From Elusimicrobiota bacterium (GTDB lineage Bacteria > Elusimicrobiota > Elusimicrobia > Elusimicrobiales > UBA9959): a stretch of 32,924 nt of DNA. A program made the translations under genes and the position numbers. This document shows positions 9,396 through 26,283 of this stretch, piece by piece (position 1 is the stretch's first letter; each line of letters opens with the position of its first letter). The notes below the pieces were generated by a model. That model saw only the letters and a list, made by a program, of their open reading frames with translations. It ran no database searches and had not been told where the DNA came from. The DNA is taken from assembly GCA_022703115.1 (NCBI GenBank), contig JAKLEK010000002.1, positions 1 through 32,924 on the forward strand, in the 5' to 3' direction.

Positions 9396-10286
9396 ATGGA
9401 AAAAGAGATCGAAGCCCTGAGGAAGGTCCCGCTATTCGCTGATTTTCCGGACCCGGCGTTGAAAAAATTCTCGGAGACGTTCAAAAGGTCCTCCTATGAG
9501 GCCGGCGGGATAATTTTCAAGGAAGGCAGCGAGGGCGACACCCTTTTCATCCTCGTGAGCGGACGGGTGATAATAGAGAAGAAGCTGGACCGGGACGGCG
9601 GCAGCTTCAAGCCGCTGGCGGTCCTTTCCGCCGGCGAGTTCTTCGGGGAGATGTCGGTGCTGGAGAAGCAGGTGCGTTTCGCCCAGGCCAGGGCCGAGGA
9701 AGCCTCATCCCTGTACGAGATAGGGCGCGAGGAGTTCTTCGCTTTCATCAGGAACAATCCGGAGAACGGCATAGCTATCTTTACGGAGATAGTCCGCGTT
9801 ATAGCCAGGCGCCTCCAGCATACTTCCAGCGAGCTCACGATGCTCTTCGATATGAGCCGCCTGATAATGCGGGAACACCGTTCCGCGGCGGATTTTATCA
9901 GGCTGACCGTTGAAGAGGTGTCCATCTACTTCGATGGGGCCTGGAATTTCCGCGGTTACGTTTATGATCCTTTTAACGAAGAATTCGAGCAGGTGGTCTC
10001 CAAAGAGGCTTTCGCGGACGGAGGAGCGGGGACCGGCGAGGCGCCGGGAGCCGACAGCGGCTGGATAGGCGCTTCCTCGTACCGTATGGTCTGCCGCGCG
10101 CACGGCAAGCCGGCCGGCTATGTCGTGTTCTCCAAGGCCTCGGCGGTCTCCGAGCAGGAGAGGAACAGTCTGACCACGATCTTCGACACGGTTTCATGCA
10201 TCATGGGTTCCGCGATCGAGAACATAGAGCACAGGACCGAAGCGGCGATGCTGGAAAAACTAAAGACGCAGAAGAGCTCAATATGA
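9396..10286 (+). CDS. Cyclic-nucleotide-binding domain protein with an uncharacterised (GAF-like?) C-terminal half and no HTH
   Basis: The cNMP-binding fold is indicated by LRKVPLFADFPDPALKKF...FKEGSEGDTLFILVSGRV...GEFFGEMSVLE...RFAQARA. I prefer the ATG at 9396, which has a GAGAGG RBS 6 nt upstream, over the TTG at 9390. The stop overlaps the rsfS start (ATGA at 10283-10286). Confidence 0.7.
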   Translation: MEKEIEALRKVPLFADFPDPALKKFSETFKRSSYEAGGIIFKEGSEGDTLFILVSGRVIIEKKLDRDGGSFKPLAVLSAGEFFGEMSVLEKQVRFAQARAEEASSLYEIGREEFFAFIRNNPENGIAIFTEIVRVIARRLQHTSSELTMLFDMSRLIMREHRSAADFIRLTVEEVSIYFDGAWNFRGYVYDPFNEEFEQVVSKEAFADGGAGTGEAPGADSGWIGASSYRMVCRAHGKPAGYVVFSKASAVSEQERNSLTTIFDTVSCIMGSAIENIEHRTEAAMLEKLKTQKSSI

Positions 10287-12897: not shown

Positions 12898-13263
12898 TCA
12901 CCGTCCGTATTGCCGCACTTTTGCGAGGATCGGGCCTATGATCTCCGGCGGCAGGGCGGCGCCGGCGCGTTCCAGCTCGTCCCCGACCCCGGCGGCGTTG
13001 AAGGAGCCGTCGGTTACGAGGATGGGGGATGATTTGTGGAGGCCGGGCCGGTCCTCCCCCCCGTCTATCCCGTCGTGCCGGTAGCCTTTGTCCCGGAGCC
13101 AGGTAAGGGCGCGGGGCTTGGACTTCAGGTCGTAGCAGAGCTGGAAGCCGTACATTCCCCCGGAAGGATCGAACCACACAATAAGATCGAAGCGCTCGTC
13201 GCTGAACCATCTCCGCGGCGGATCGCCCGGTATCTGTCTTACGTCCTTCATTTCGCGAAGCAT
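12898..13263 (-). CDS. Hypothetical small protein (121 aa) coupled to the adenosyltransferase gene
   Basis: The ORF track frame is 12898-13497. I place the start at the ATG at 13261-13263 (MLREMKDVRQIPGDPPRRWFSDERFDLIVWFDPSGGMYGFQLCYD...), which has a GGAGAGG RBS 4 nt upstream. Its stop lies 2 nt before the downstream ATG. I did not recognise a family. Confidence 0.55.
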   Translation of the reverse strand: MLREMKDVRQIPGDPPRRWFSDERFDLIVWFDPSGGMYGFQLCYDLKSKPRALTWLRDKGYRHDGIDGGEDRPGLHKSSPILVTDGSFNAAGVGDELERAGAALPPEIIGPILAKVRQYGR

Positions 13264-13399
13264 GACCTCTCCCCCGCCCGGTTCGGCCGGTGCGGGTATA
13301 GTGTATTTTAATAGCGGCCGTCGCACAAGCCCCGCTCCCCCTTTGGTTCGCCGGGCTGCCAGAAGAAGGATAGAGAGTCCGCGGCCACCGGAGGGAGCC

Positions 13400-13590
13400 T
13401 TCTGTCTGCCGGGGTTCTGTCGACCCTCGGCTGGTAATCCCGGGTACGCTGGGCTGCCGGGGGACACAGGGGTCGAAGGGCACGCTATCGGCCACACCGT
13501 GGCCGCGCTCCCACTCGGCCTCGCCGCTTACGTAAGGCTCGGCCTGCGTGACGGCCCTTTGACCCCTGTGTCCCCCGTCAACCGCTCCAA
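13400..13590 (-). ncRNA. Candidate structured RNA, copy A' (inverted paralog of copies A and B; 3' boundary uncertain)
   Basis: On the minus strand it begins TTGGAGCGG (reverse complement of 13582-13590). A 23-bp helix pairs 13459-13481 with 13554-13576, with one G-T/A-C position. Then comes CCGTCACGCAGGCCGAGCCTTACGTAAGCGGCGAGGCC, which aligns with copy B (CCGTCACGGAGGCCCGAACTTGCGTAAGCGAGAGGGCC). A hairpin GGCCAC-GGT-GTGGCC sits at 13490-13504. The strand is assigned only by homology orientation, because the helices would form on either strand. Confidence 0.4.
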
Positions 13591-13638
13591 CGGAGTAGCA
13601 CTATATTCCGTTCTGCTCTAGTTAAGGATGTTCCTTAT

Positions 13639-13885
13639 TTGGAGCGGGAGGCAGGGGAACCGGAAAAGCGGAAGCGTCCGGAGGCCGAGGCTTACGTAAG
13701 CGACGAGGACCGGGTGGACTACGCTATCCTGTTGTGTGTTCGTGGACACAACTTGGAACGCAGGCGCGCGTACGGTGTACGCGACGCCGGTTCCGCGTTC
13801 CGGGCCCCTGACAGGCCCCGCGCACCCAATTCGCGGCTGACCGTTAAACTCCAGCCAGGACCCCGAACCCGGGGGGCGTCAGGGC
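13639..13885 (+). ncRNA. Candidate structured RNA, copy A
   Basis: Five nested Watson-Crick helices join the 5' and 3' parts: 13644-48/13817-21, 13652-57/13805-10, 13660-65/13798-803, 13668-73/13791-96 and 13678-81/13787-90. All five are mirrored by different but complementary sequences in copy B. The 43-nt core at 13711-13753 is 40/43 identical to B. The palindrome CTTACGTAAG is at 13691-13700. A strong promoter for the next gene lies downstream of the element, so it is not simply the nifU-like leader. Confidence 0.5.
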
Positions 13886-13929
13886 GGCGGGCGGAGCGCA
13901 GGCTTTTGAGGAAGGGCAAATGGGGTTCG

Positions 13930-13938
13930 TGGTATAAT
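13930..13938 (+). promoter_or_regulatory. Extended -10 promoter element (TGgTATAAT) for the NifU-like gene
   Basis: A perfect TATAAT sits at 13933-13938, preceded by TG at 13930-13931. It lies 85 nt upstream of the ATG at 14023, in an otherwise GC-rich spacer. Confidence 0.5.
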
Positions 13939-14022
13939 TATAACGTACCGCGCGGACACGCCGGCAGCACGGCCGGGCGCCGCCTTTCTGGCGGGGCACG
14001 TCGGCGGTCTAACGGAGCCACA

Positions 14023-14247
14023 ATGAAAGACAAAGTTCAGAAGACCATTGAAAAGATAAAGCCCATGCTCGAGGCGGACGGCGGGTCGGTAGAGCTGATA
14101 AGCGTCGACGAAAAGAGCGGGATCGTGAAAGTGCGCCTTACCGGCGCCTGCGGCTGCTGCCCGCACGCCACCATGACGCTTAAGAACGTCGTGGAACGCA
14201 TGATAAAGGAAGAAGTCCCCGAGGTCAAGGAAGTTACCGTCGGCTGA
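14023..14247 (+). CDS. NifU C-terminal-domain (Nfu-like) Fe-S cluster scaffold protein, 74 aa
   Basis: MKDKVQKTIEKIKPMLEADGGSVELISVDEKSGIVKVRLTGACGCCPHATMTLKNVVERMIKEEVPEV contains the CxxC motif of the NifU C-terminal domain. A GGAG RBS precedes the ATG at 14023. The longer 202-aa ORF in the track is rejected. Confidence 0.85.
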   Translation: MKDKVQKTIEKIKPMLEADGGSVELISVDEKSGIVKVRLTGACGCCPHATMTLKNVVERMIKEEVPEVKEVTVG

Positions 14248-20653: not shown

Positions 20654-20893
20654 TTATTTCTTTTTCTTGGTCTTGGCGTTGACCATCTTGGCGCGGCCGA
20701 TATCGCCGGCCTTGTCGAGATAATAGAGGTAGCCCGGCTCCTTCCTGACGCCGACCTTGGTCACCTTCTGGGGCTTTCCGCCCTTTTTCCCGCCGCGGGC
20801 CATCTTGGCGCGGGCGACGTCCCCGGCCTTGTCTATGTAATAGAGGAAACCGTCCTCTCTCTTTACGCCTACTTTCTGTACTTTTTCACCCAT
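20654..20893 (-). CDS. Small basic protein (79 aa) made of two tandem ~38-aa repeats
   Basis: KVQKVGVKREDGFLYYIDKAGDVARAKM is followed by KVTKVGVRKEPGYLYYLDKAGDIGRAKM and a KTKKKK tail. An AGGAGGA RBS lies 7 nt upstream of the ATG, and the gene has its own promoter and terminator. Confidence 0.7.
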   Translation of the reverse strand: MGEKVQKVGVKREDGFLYYIDKAGDVARAKMARGGKKGGKPQKVTKVGVRKEPGYLYYLDKAGDIGRAKMVNAKTKKKK

Positions 20894-20929
20894 TATAAGG
20901 TCCTCCTGCAGAACGAGTCTCTAACGAAA

Positions 20930-20958
20930 ATTCTACACTATATCGTCGTAGAAATCAA
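20930..20958 (-). promoter_or_regulatory. Sigma-70-like promoter for the small repeat-protein gene
   Basis: On the minus strand, TTGATT (reverse complement of 20953-20958) is followed by a 17-nt spacer and TAGAAT (reverse complement of 20930-20935). The -10 element is about 37 nt upstream of the ATG. Confidence 0.5.
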
Positions 20959-20987
20959 TACCGGGCAAGAAGCAGAACGAGATATGG

Positions 20988-21271
20988 TTGGAGGGGAGGC
21001 CGGGGATTTGGCGGAGCAAACCGTCACGGAGGCCCGAACTTGCGTAAGCGAGAGGGCCGGGCGGACTACGCTATCCTGTCGTGTGTTCGTGGACGCAACT
21101 CGTGAGGGGGGGCTGGGCTATCGAAGGTTTGCTACGGACACTGTGCGAGGCCGTCTGAGGGCCATAGGCCTTGAAACGGCACTGGCATAGCCGAGACCCC
21201 GTGTTTGCGGAGCCAAACCCCGGACAGGCCCCCGAACCCTACGCGGAACTCTTGATGTCGCCCAGCCGGAC
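20988..21271 (+). ncRNA. Candidate structured RNA, copy B
   Basis: It begins TTGGAGGGG. The helices are 20993-96/21229-32, 21000-05/21218-23, 21007-12/21212-17, 21016-20/21204-08 and 21025-29/21199-203. The same AGG/ACAGG internal loop and the 4-nt bulge followed by AGGCC are present as in copy A. CTTGCGTAAG is at 21039-21048, and the core is at 21058-21100. A copy-specific inserted domain is closed by GGCTAT/ATAGCC (about 21115-21192). Confidence 0.5.
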
Positions 21272-21277
21272 GCGCGG

Positions 21278-22177
21278 TCAGAGATTTTCGGAGAAGAACT
21301 GGGAGACGCGCTTCTTGTAGACCTCGCCTCCGACCTCGGCGCACTTGCCGTGCGACGCCCCCGTTATGGTCCACAGCTGTTTCTTCTCCGATCCGCACAG
21401 GGAGAACAGTTCCTCCGCGTCCCGCAGCGGAACGATATCGTCGTGGTCGCCGTTTATCAGAAGCACCGGGGCCTTCACTCTGGATATATTGTGCGCCGGA
21501 CTGAACGGCTCCGGGTCCGCGCCCAGCTTCATCCTTACGAAGGCCAGCGTCACGGGCACCAGCGGAAAATACGGCACCCGCGTCCGTAGCCAGCTCCAGT
21601 TGGATATGACCCGCTTGTATGAAAGGAAGGTGTTCTCGGCCAGCAGGCATTTGATCTCCGGGTATTTGGCCGCCGCGAACACGGCCACCGAACCTCCCAT
21701 GGAGGAGCCGAAAACCGCCGTGCGCTCCATGGCGTGCGGCCGGTGGGCCTTGAGGAAATCGTAAGCCGCGTCGAAGTCCCGGGTCTCCAGATAGCCCACG
21801 CTGGACAACGTGCCGCCGCTTTCCCCCGAGCCGCGGAAGTCGAAATAGAACAGATTAAAGCCCTTCTCGGCCAGGAACCAGGTGTCCCGGAGCAGGTCGC
21901 CGCGGTTGACCCCCATGCCGTGGCACAGGATTATGGTCTTATCCGTTTCCCCCCCTTCCGCGGGGATGAACCAGCTCTTCAGCGTCAGGCCGTCGGAGGT
22001 GGGAAGATCTATGGTCTCGTAGGCCAGGCCGAACTGGTCGGGGTGTACGGTCACCGGGGTGCGCCGTTTGGGCGGACGTATTATGGAGTAGCTTTTGAAG
22101 TACGCCGTCACCAGGGTGGCGGCGGCCAGGCCAAGGGCAGAAAATAAAGACCAGTTCAGGATTTCCGCGGAGTTCAT
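21278..22177 (-). CDS. Membrane-anchored alpha/beta hydrolase
   Basis: The 299-aa ORF has an N-terminal TM helix, the nucleophile elbow GSSMGGS, and candidate catalytic Asp/His contexts INGDHDDIVP and GASHG. Confidence 0.8.
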   Translation of the reverse strand: MNSAEILNWSLFSALGLAAATLVTAYFKSYSIIRPPKRRTPVTVHPDQFGLAYETIDLPTSDGLTLKSWFIPAEGGETDKTIILCHGMGVNRGDLLRDTWFLAEKGFNLFYFDFRGSGESGGTLSSVGYLETRDFDAAYDFLKAHRPHAMERTAVFGSSMGGSVAVFAAAKYPEIKCLLAENTFLSYKRVISNWSWLRTRVPYFPLVPVTLAFVRMKLGADPEPFSPAHNISRVKAPVLLINGDHDDIVPLRDAEELFSLCGSEKKQLWTITGASHGKCAEVGGEVYKKRVSQFFSENL

Positions 22178-26135: not shown

Positions 26136-26283
26136 AATCGGAGGATTTAAGGTGTTTCCGGGCCCCTAATATTATAGAATCTATTATTATTGGAAGGTCC
26201 CGCAGTATAACGGCTTTACCGGGCCCGGCAGGCCCGGCGCCGTTCCGGGGCCTCCGGATATGATTCGGTTCTCGGGAGCTACG

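Follow-up and report, generated by a model that had tools for sequence, protein, structure and literature searches.

Several kinds of dispersed, structured repeats are known from bacterial genomes. Enterobacterial repetitive intergenic consensus (ERIC) elements are imperfect palindromes of 127 bp, and Correia elements are found in Neisseria; in both families the copies resemble each other along their whole length, and Correia elements also have conserved terminal repeats and a TA duplication. REPs are simple palindromes of 20-40 nt, in which the 5' GTAG and the stems are conserved. Here we analyze a structured, non-coding element that is present in three copies, termed A, A' and B, in a DNA stretch of 32,924 nucleotides from a member of the Elusimicrobiales (assembly GCA_022703115.1, contig JAKLEK010000002.1, positions 1 to 32,924 of the forward strand; hereafter called the window). 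The element represents an apparently undescribed family of a familiar kind, namely dispersed structured repeats or non-coding RNAs (ncRNAs); a full-text literature search retrieved neither a description of this family nor one of the non-coding repertoire of Elusimicrobia.

The family is non-coding, structured as a single strand, multi-copy and restricted to Elusimicrobia. The initial annotation of the window, which had reported A and B as copies of one structured element, had suggested that A, A' and B be aligned and that a covariance model be used to search related genomes, and this route indeed recovered a family of many copies. Scanning a collection of species-representative genomes with a shared pattern of 18 specified bases yielded at least 118 stretches, from which copy numbers per genome can be read only as lower bounds; about 110 of them are in metagenome-assembled genomes (MAGs) of Elusimicrobia, Elusimicrobiales or Elusimicrobiaceae, several per MAG, while the 8 stretches from other phyla are chance matches without the rest of the element. 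A covariance model of 135 positions and 49 pairs (R1), constructed from 81 aligned copies with the structure taken from their individual folds, finds at least 134 copies in 118 loci of 8 kb from about 35 Elusimicrobia MAGs, including 24 copies that lack the seed pattern. The window has three copies in 33 kb, and the flanking DNA has, outside pairs, about 16 unseeded copies per Mb; roughly extrapolated, this gives tens, perhaps hundreds, of copies per genome. No copies were found in the viral contigs and plasmids searched.

Within the window R1 has exactly three matches, A', A and B, each extending over the full length of the model. Copy A' scores 95.4 bits, copy A scores 56.4 bits (13646-13822, model positions 1-135, cmsearch) and copy B scores 37.2 bits (20994-21234, model positions 1-135, with an insert of 132 nt); A' was among the 81 training sequences, and A and B were outside the training set. 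Because a model built from unrelated genomes matches each of them over its full length, the three copies are far beyond chance. The initial annotation could not place the element in any known RNA family, and the same holds for Rfam 15 (4227 models): over the whole window there was no match at the gathering threshold, and at E <= 10 no match overlapped A, A' or B. A canonical head-to-head pair from another genome (locus L027) retrieved from Rfam only ncr1175, with 16 bits versus a gathering score of 60 (E = 2.8). A scan of the window for transfer RNAs and transfer-messenger RNAs found none.

The canonical element is short, like A': it comprises about 135 nt, or 165-190 nt if the outermost helix and the tails are included. 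Its outer part (P0/P1) is a long stem, rich in GC and specific to the locus, on top of which sits a conserved core of about 95 nt. P0 consists of 4-6 G-C pairs, often preceded by (U)GGA, and beyond it lies an asymmetric purine loop with AG(G) opposite (AC)AGG. P1 is a stem of 12-17 bp, followed by a small internal loop (GUUA / GUU) and by P2, which enters a three-way junction with the P3-P4 arm and the P5 hairpin. In the P3-J(CGGA)-P4 arm, P4 has the form GGCC-GA-GGC-UUGCGUAAGC-GCC-GA-GGCC, with tandem G.A pairs (GA/GA) and the apex CUUGCGUAAGCG; in some subtypes the tandem G.A slides by one position or becomes Watson-Crick pairs. P5 has the form GGCG-CGCGC-ACGGUGU-GCGCG-A-CGCC, and its loop ACGGUGU and the bulged A are invariant in the 81-84 aligned copies, even though neither was part of the search pattern. 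Optional modules of the form GGGUGG-hairpin-CACUGCAGUGA are situated after P4 or within P5, and in 30 of the 121 copies an AT-rich stretch precedes the GGAG(G/C)GG start.

This structure is supported by covariation across the family. In an alignment of 108 rows, whose fitting to the model flatters the pairing (the controls with slid partners and the analysis of orthologs presented below are free of that bias), 86.1% of the cells are paired, compared to 63.1% after shuffling and 35-45% with slid partners; 45 of the 49 pairs are changed on both sides, and the covariation score is 0.435 versus 0.116, with none of 500 shuffles matching any of these measures. P4 covaries at the pairs that flank the GA. 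The mismatches that remain are asymmetric: G.U and U.G together are found 141 times versus 57 times for A.C and C.A (about 2.5:1; 57 versus 23 in the locus-specific P1 alone), and G.A/A.G 438 times versus 69 times for C.U/U.C. Since G.U exceeds A.C and G.A exceeds C.U, the strand of A and B as written is the one that folds. The initial annotation had left the strand open, and A and B alone do not settle it, but the family does, in favor of the + strand for both copies. The asymmetry is equal in all four classes of gene context.

That the element is multi-copy and non-coding, as the initial annotation had argued from the different spacing of two blocks in A and B, is borne out by indels between copies that are not multiples of three. 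Copies A and B differ by 1 nt in length between the conserved blocks, substitutions track base-pairing rather than codons, and a reading frame conserved across the copies (e.g. of a type I toxin) was not found, the conserved region itself containing single-nucleotide indels. A small open reading frame (ORF) of the type GUG...UGA running through P1-P4 was considered and rejected on account of frame-breaking indels between subtypes.

The five nested helices that had been proposed for copy A are all present as complementary segments, read directly from the sequence and located exactly where they had been placed: GCGGG (13644-48) with CCCGC (13817-21), CAGGGG (13652-57) with CCCCTG (13805-10), CCGGAA (13660-65) with TTCCGG (13798-803), GCGGAA (13668-73) with TTCCGC (13791-96) and CCGG (13678-81) with CCGG (13787-90). 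The matching nested architecture of copy B (20993-21029 / 21199-21233) and the AGG / ACAGG internal loop in both copies were found as well. The fifth and innermost pairing, CCGG/CCGG in A and CACGG/CCGUG in B, however, is not conserved in the family: its 5' segment pairs as P3 with the strand that follows P4, and its 3' segment is made up of the end of P5 and the junction. Under the family model copy A forms 36 of the 49 pairs and copy B forms 28 of the 40 pairs that have bases on both sides in B; the compensatory pair differences number 10 between A and B and 18 between A and A'. Minimum-free-energy folding recovers the nested helices, with z-scores relative to shuffled sequences of -2.1 for A, -3.5 for B and -4.9 for A', and no shuffled version of A' is as stable as its actual fold. 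The outer stem of A' coincides with the inverted repeat I2 (13452-13481 / 13554-13583). In a three-copy alignment, the block common to A, A' and B is CGnAGGCCnnnnCUUnCGUAAGCG, together with the UUGGAG(C/G)GG start; the P4 hairpin of copy A conforms to the pattern CGNAGGCCNNNNCTTNCGTAAGCG, which is common to A, A', B and more than 110 loci. Copy A is an enlarged member of an interspersed Elusimicrobia family of hairpin-plus-three-way-junction elements, and A and B are local derivatives with a common extra insertion of 45-50 nt, B having an expanded P5 in addition. The features of the copies and of the two adjacent genes are collected in Table 1.

Table 1. Parts of the three copies and neighboring features (positions in the window)
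Feature	Position	Strand	Description
Copy A, full element	13639-13822	+	UUGGAG leader, P0/P1 outer stem, P2, P3-P4 arm, insertion, P5, 3' strands to CCCCGC
Copy A, 5' arm	13644-13681	+	P0 GCGGG, loop AGG, P1 CAGGGG + CCGGAA, P2 GCGGAA, P3 5' strand GCGU
Copy A, P4 hairpin	13683-13711	+	GGCC-GA-GGC-UUACGUAAGC-GAC-GA-GGACC; most conserved block of the family
Insertion specific to A and B	13712-13757	+	GGGUGGA-CUACGC-UAUCC hairpin, U-rich run, GUUGUGU/ACACAAC hairpin
Copy A, P5 hairpin	13763-13788	+	GGCG-CGCGU-ACGGUGU-ACGCG-A-CGCC; family-invariant 7-nt loop, bulged A
Copy A, 3' arm	13789-13821	+	Junction GG, P2 UUCCGC, P1 UUCCGG + CCCCUG, loop ACAGG, P0 CCCGC (13817-13821)
Copy A'	13448-13590	-	Canonical short member, head-to-head with copy A
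A'/A spacer	13591-13638	.	AT-richer, between the 5' ends of A' and A; no consensus promoter found
Copy B	20988-21233	+	Same outer architecture, same insertion (21059-21100), P5 domain much enlarged (to about 130 nt)
NifU-like gene	14023-14247	+	Pfam E = 9e-27
121-aa ORF	12898-13263	-	Gene start at about 13263

The last part of the interval given in the initial annotation, 13823-13885 (GCACCCAAUUCGCGG...CCCCGAACCCGGGGGGCGUCAGGGC), lies downstream of copy A and is not covered by the family model. This segment is similar to the variable tail that follows other copies, CCCC-GA(A/C)C...GCGG, and has a second occurrence of the CCAGGACCCCGAACCC motif, as does the 3' end of copy B.

The block of 43 nt shared by A and B, which the initial annotation had regarded as the core of the element, is indeed 40/43 identical over 13711-13753 (92% over 49 nt, if 13705-13753 is compared with 21052-21100), but it turned out to be a lineage-specific insertion, and the conserved heart of the element is instead the P3-P4/P5 three-way junction, which A and B have in common with A'. 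The covariance model places the block, with a length of about 43 nt, between P4 and the 3' strand of P3 and treats it as an insert. None of the other loci examined contained it, and a scan of a metagenome collection matched only two contigs of the same organism, which carry copies of B. The insertion occupies the same site after P4 as the optional modules of other copies and, like them, starts with GGGUGG or GGGCGG. A and B share a converted or co-inherited segment, comprising P4 and the insertion, within two different local stems. Two resemblances of the insertion to ribosomal RNA were judged to be due to chance: the similarity of 13731-13778, which takes in P5 as well, to positions 285-329 of E. 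coli 23S rRNA is borderline (2 of 200 shuffles reached its score) and has no structural logic, and GAGGACCGG-GUGGAC is similar, by eye, to the 3' flank of the sarcin-ricin loop.

Copies within the same genome are old, with a median best identity of 0.81, and for 98 of 121 copies the nearest relative was found in another genome, a result weakened by the small number of copies sampled per genome. At least 14 pairs of copies from different genomes have both flanks homologous, and among the pair positions that differ between such orthologs, 113 show double compensatory changes, 17 are wobbles and 91 break a pair. In gap-free comparisons made by hand, all three P1 differences between L108 and L130 are compensatory, and the differences between L119 and L129 comprise two compensatory and two G.U changes. 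Orthologous loci thus retain their pairing through compensatory substitutions.

Related genomes also differ by the gain or loss of whole units, head-to-head pairs among them. The syntenic contig L137, which has 68-85% nucleotide identity to the window across the aligned genes, contains none of A, A' and B, and copy B is missing at the syntenic site in L132/L137 and in L135; contigs that are near-identical around B show no variation, and more distant relatives lack it. L079 and L123 lack the copy at L044:359-494, which was inserted together with about 27 nt of leader and about 21 nt of trailer; L019 lacks the entire L043 pair (about 400 nt), and a pair in L126 corresponds to a single copy in L074. 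The window itself contains an empty site, as the spacer 26136-26259 is the counterpart of the filled site L066:2159-2316. At the sites checked, the incoming DNA carries a stem and tails of its own. The idea that the locus-specific stems originated when a core entered a pre-existing terminator hairpin was rejected for the cases that can be checked, namely L123, L079, L019 and L132, whose empty sites have no matching hairpin.

The region of L137 syntenic to 13264-14022 of the window (L137 14337-14798), which is devoid of A and A', holds two copies of another short repeat, gtctttccggcgaaagccggaatccagaa, each of which carries the hairpin CCGGCGAAAGCCGG. A perfect hairpin of 17 bp, TTAACCTGGAAGTTTCA GT TGAAACTTCCAGGTTA, follows immediately after a stop codon at 10129-10170 of the same contig, so long simple hairpins at gene ends do exist in relatives that lack the element.

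The core and the outer stem have different histories. Copies whose cores are 93-100% identical may have a P1 identity as low as 17-47%, and clusters of cores with at least 95% identity span up to five genomes, while their P1 identity is 0.50 versus a background of 0.44. In 43 of 46 comparisons of orthologs the core is closer to that of a non-ortholog; for instance, L108 and L130 have flanks that are 90% identical and keep a related P1 but have different cores, the core of L108 being that of L017 and L113. As identical cores sit in unrelated P1 stems, the outer stem is a property of the locus, whereas copying between loci affects the core; near-identical cores in unrelated stems are what gene conversion or a cassette-like exchange of copies would produce. 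The comparison of A with B has to be seen in the same light, since their outer stems are locus-specific: the initial claim that the helices covary holds across the family, but the re-coded outer helices of A and B are not simply the outcome of long-term compensatory drift.

The neighborhood of the three copies is an ordinary chromosome, with genes for ArgS, a PduO-type adenosyltransferase, the 121-aa ORF, the NifU-like protein, a PHP-domain protein, FolD and an alpha/beta hydrolase. Mechanically called ORFs (13639-14247 on the + strand, 202 aa, and 12898-13497 on the - strand, 199 aa) over-extend across A and A'. Across the family the elements are intergenic and, according to a crude ORF picker based on G+C content at third codon positions and checked by eye on the window, their orientation with respect to the flanking genes is random: 37 copies are antisense to both neighbors, 33 are sense to both, 19 lie between convergent and 18 between divergent genes. 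The 3' end of the element is at a median distance of 12-13 nt from the stop codon of the convergent gene.

Pairs of neighboring copies, on the other hand, are strictly arranged. All 10 close pairs in the family, A'/A included, are head-to-head (-,+), with the 5' ends facing each other across spacers of 14-111 nt, and none of the 10 is tandem or tail-to-tail; we estimate the chance of finding ten such arrangements among ten pairs at about 1e-6 if adjacent copies were oriented at random (0.25^10). Five pairs in two genomes combine a copy of the GGAGGGG...CCCC-GACUUCGCAUCUCGCGG type with one of the GGGCGGAGACC...GGUAGGCCGCCC type, and these have a partly conserved spacer of 44-46 nt. A gene located between two distant (-,+) copies in L124 codes for an unrelated, membrane-like hypothetical protein.

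Searches for transcription signals gave little. The motif TANNNT is found upstream of the element with a frequency of 0.53 versus 0.42-0.47 in controls, with no positional enrichment family-wide. Consensus sequences, which may not suit Elusimicrobia, revealed neither a sigma-70 promoter nor an intrinsic terminator at A, A' or B; the only terminator-like site in 13200-14100 is a small hairpin in the insertion of copy A (13712-13729), and there is none in 20850-21350. In the middle of the A'/A spacer, 13599-13606 reads CACTATAT on the + strand and ATATAGTG on the - strand and could form overlapping, face-to-face -10 boxes (TATATT and TATAGT); there is no -35 box at a distance of 16-18 nt, and no promoter was called there in the scan. 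CACTATAT was also considered as a promoter common to A and B, which was rejected, as near B it is the spacer of a minus-strand promoter, TTGATT-17-TAGAAT (20930-20958), of a gene for a 79-aa protein, the only promoter found near B. This promoter is conserved in the relatives L132 and L133. The gene itself (20654-20893, - strand) contains an internal tandem duplication, with a DNA repeat (20666-20758 / 20783-20875) that is 72% identical; the protein has no Pfam domain and has 796 homologs, the named ones mostly from Elusimicrobia, which places the source organism in this group; a few sources give relatives of the protein the label '20S proteasome subunit', which looks like a mis-annotation.

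Taking these results together, we tentatively prefer, without being confident of it, the view that the element is a dispersed structured repeat similar to REP, ERIC and Correia elements, working as a folded single strand at gene ends. It displays the features of ERIC/Correia-like repeats, which we understand as a functional class and not as a homology family: it is an imperfect palindrome of 100-200 nt, multi-copy, intergenic, found in both orientations, polymorphic in its presence, and with insertion variants. The element would then act single-stranded, most probably as RNA read through from neighboring genes; the very stable hairpin, which is usually no more than a few tens of nucleotides away from a stop codon, would serve to mark, terminate or protect transcript ends or to present them for processing, and the invariant Y-shaped tip may serve as a docking site for some protein. 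Several points weigh against this view. With random orientation, read-through would yield the antisense strand of roughly half the copies, yet these have the same strand asymmetry, and an asymmetry independent of the direction of transcription fits a process involving single-stranded DNA (ssDNA), or a promoter of the element's own, better than passive read-through. At the same time there is no -10 enrichment upstream of the family and no consensus sigma-70 promoter or terminator for A, A' and B; strand asymmetry in the absence of a promoter signal is the main tension in the data, and it keeps the explanations by ssDNA and by own promoters alive. The three-way junction, the GNRA-like apex and the 7-nt loop look more like those of a dedicated ncRNA, and we know of no REP, ERIC or Correia element with a branched core as elaborate as this one. 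Cores that are identical across species could mean strong purifying selection on a functional RNA and not copying. Finally, the copy numbers per genome are lower bounds, and the gene contexts come from the crude ORF picker mentioned above.

One alternative, which we regard as unlikely but deserving of serious attention, is that the copies are stand-alone genes for trans-acting small RNAs (sRNAs), each with its own promoter and giving a Y-shaped RNA of about 135-190 nt, whose P4/P5 tip binds a conserved protein. The tip could thereby work like a sponge or a scaffold, or form a Y-RNA- or 6S-like particle, and the outer stem would need only to pair. Such genes would explain the RNA-typical character of the conserved core (tandem sheared G.A, a C-GUAA-G apex and the invariant 7-nt loop), the preference for the sense strand whatever the orientation of the neighboring genes, the random orientation itself, which independent genes would show, and the maintenance of pairing at orthologous loci; about a quarter of the copies start with (U)GGAG(G/C)GG after an AT-rich, -10-like sequence, and inserted units include a 5' leader such as GCGTTATTTGAAGCC or CCTTATTTGGAGC. 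The lack of positional enrichment of TANNNT and the missing consensus promoters and terminators of A, A' and B speak against them, however, and in some head-to-head pairs the 5' ends are separated by only 14-27 nt, without any AT-rich spacer. Tens to perhaps hundreds of copies per genome, as extrapolated, would also be unusual for a family of sRNA genes, and the copies are freely gained and lost between relatives. The strand asymmetry, independent of the direction of transcription as it is, would also agree with a mobile element acting as folded ssDNA, of which one strand extrudes a hairpin during replication or transfer, and whose Y-shaped tip is recognized by a Y1/HUH transposase (RAYT/IS200) or by a recombinase of the Xer/integrase type, as at attC or CTX attP, that moves or exchanges the core; we consider this rather improbable. 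The lack of target-site duplications is what ssDNA transposons would show, the cores behave as cassettes between unrelated stems, head-to-head doublets recall REPINs, and units come and go. Yet no Y1/RAYT homolog was seen in 0.98 Mb of flanking DNA, where tblastn with the E. coli RayT sequence reached an E-value of 1.6 at best, no copy is split by a gene, and there are no copies in viral contigs or plasmids; the orientation of the element shows no bias with respect to local GC skew (39 versus 29), although this is a weak test. Furthermore, copies in one genome are old, and compensatory maintenance at orthologous loci would be needless for a purely selfish element.

The two remaining conventional explanations fare worse. 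The initial annotation had pointed out that copies bounded by target-site duplications and linked to a transposase would make the element a miniature inverted-repeat transposable element (MITE). A classical MITE arises from a DNA transposon by deletion, and its terminal inverted repeats are recognized by a transposase. An imperfect palindrome that is multi-copy, intergenic and polymorphic in presence between relatives would agree with this, and the gain and loss of units is real, but the loci examined revealed neither target-site duplications nor conserved terminal inverted repeats nor a transposase. Direct repeats of 2-9 nt flanking the copies are no more common than in shuffled pairings of left and right borders (the borders being imprecise, as they were set by minimum-free-energy folding), and there is no preferred flanking dinucleotide. 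The outer stem is variable and the center is conserved, the reverse of what is seen in MITEs; near-identical cores have an outer-stem identity of only 17-57%, with a background of 44%. There is also no autonomous or split copy (separated by more than about 130 nt) among the roughly 110 pattern loci, nor are there any near-identical copies within a genome. We regard a classical MITE as very improbable. We give still less credence to a cis-regulatory leader (a riboswitch or attenuator) of a downstream gene, which for copy A would be the NifU-like gene. A and A' each point at a gene (for A' the 121-aa ORF), and a three-way junction is a common aptamer fold; B, however, which is antisense to both of its neighbors, points at the 3' end of the convergent hydrolase gene, only 51 of 107 copies have a co-directional gene downstream, and there is no fixed position or orientation. 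The likely NifU promoter (TGGTATAAT, at about 13929-13937) lies downstream of A, a conserved box of the 121-aa gene, ACACTATA(C/T), lies downstream of A', and in the syntenic relative L137 these genes are present although the elements are absent. A bolder possibility, in our opinion an improbable one, would be a phylum-specific class of the 'socket and cassette' type, in which dedicated, structure-recognizing machinery actively transfers or copies the Y-shaped core of about 95 nt from one long, locus-specific stem to another, in the same genome and perhaps across genomes, and the folded sense strand, be it RNA or ssDNA, has a host-level role at gene ends. Its mechanism would differ from that of MITEs with a transposase and terminal inverted repeats, from RAYT/REP systems, and from ordinary sRNA genes.

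Elusimicrobia are almost entirely uncultured, and for this phylum a covariance model, a consensus structure supported by covariation and about 130 examples of the element are now available. Annotators can use them to mask or label sites that ORF callers run through. The combination of compensatory maintenance, gain and loss of units and exchange of cores makes the family a tractable natural system for studying how dispersed structured repeats persist, and for asking whether selection acts on RNA or on ssDNA. Should the element have a partner protein, its invariant loops (ACGGUGU, CUUGCGUAAGCG and AGG/ACAGG) offer handles for finding it.

Among described systems, our preferred view of a dispersed structured repeat at gene ends brings the element closest to the ERIC and Correia families. 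They share the size class of 100-160 nt, the imperfect palindromes that fold as one long hairpin, the dispersed intergenic location near gene ends in either orientation, the longer variants that arise by insertions at fixed internal sites, and the presence or absence of copies between relatives; for both, an effect on transcript processing or stability is the working model. On the other hand, there is no sequence similarity to the Elusimicrobia element, which differs in its conserved three-way-junction tip and locus-specific outer stem and, from Correia elements, in that no target-site duplication was found. With REPs and REPINs the element has in common that it is strand-specific, structure-dependent, without target-site duplications and extragenic near the 3' ends of genes, and that it forms inverted doublets; at 135-190 nt it is, however, 4-5 times larger, its core is branched and its stems are variable, and the 0.98 Mb of flanking DNA held no RAYT homolog. 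Rfam motifs such as HEARO, GOLLD, ROOL, raiA or those of the Chloroflexi-1 type are likewise restricted to certain phyla, supported by strong covariation and found by comparative analysis, but the copy number and the gain and loss of the Elusimicrobia element resemble those of a repeat more than those of a gene. In the attC sites of integrons and in the forked hairpins of attP(+) of the CTX phage, which are recombination sites made of folded ssDNA, as here, the structure is conserved while the stem sequence is variable, one strand is functional and the behavior is cassette-like; the Elusimicrobia elements have no integrase, cassette array or pattern of R and L boxes, and they are scattered singly among housekeeping genes. 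To our knowledge, head-to-head doublets and exchange of cores have not been described for the ERIC and Correia families. The element is thus set apart from known repeats by its branched invariant core, its locus-specific stems with core exchange and its obligate head-to-head doublets.

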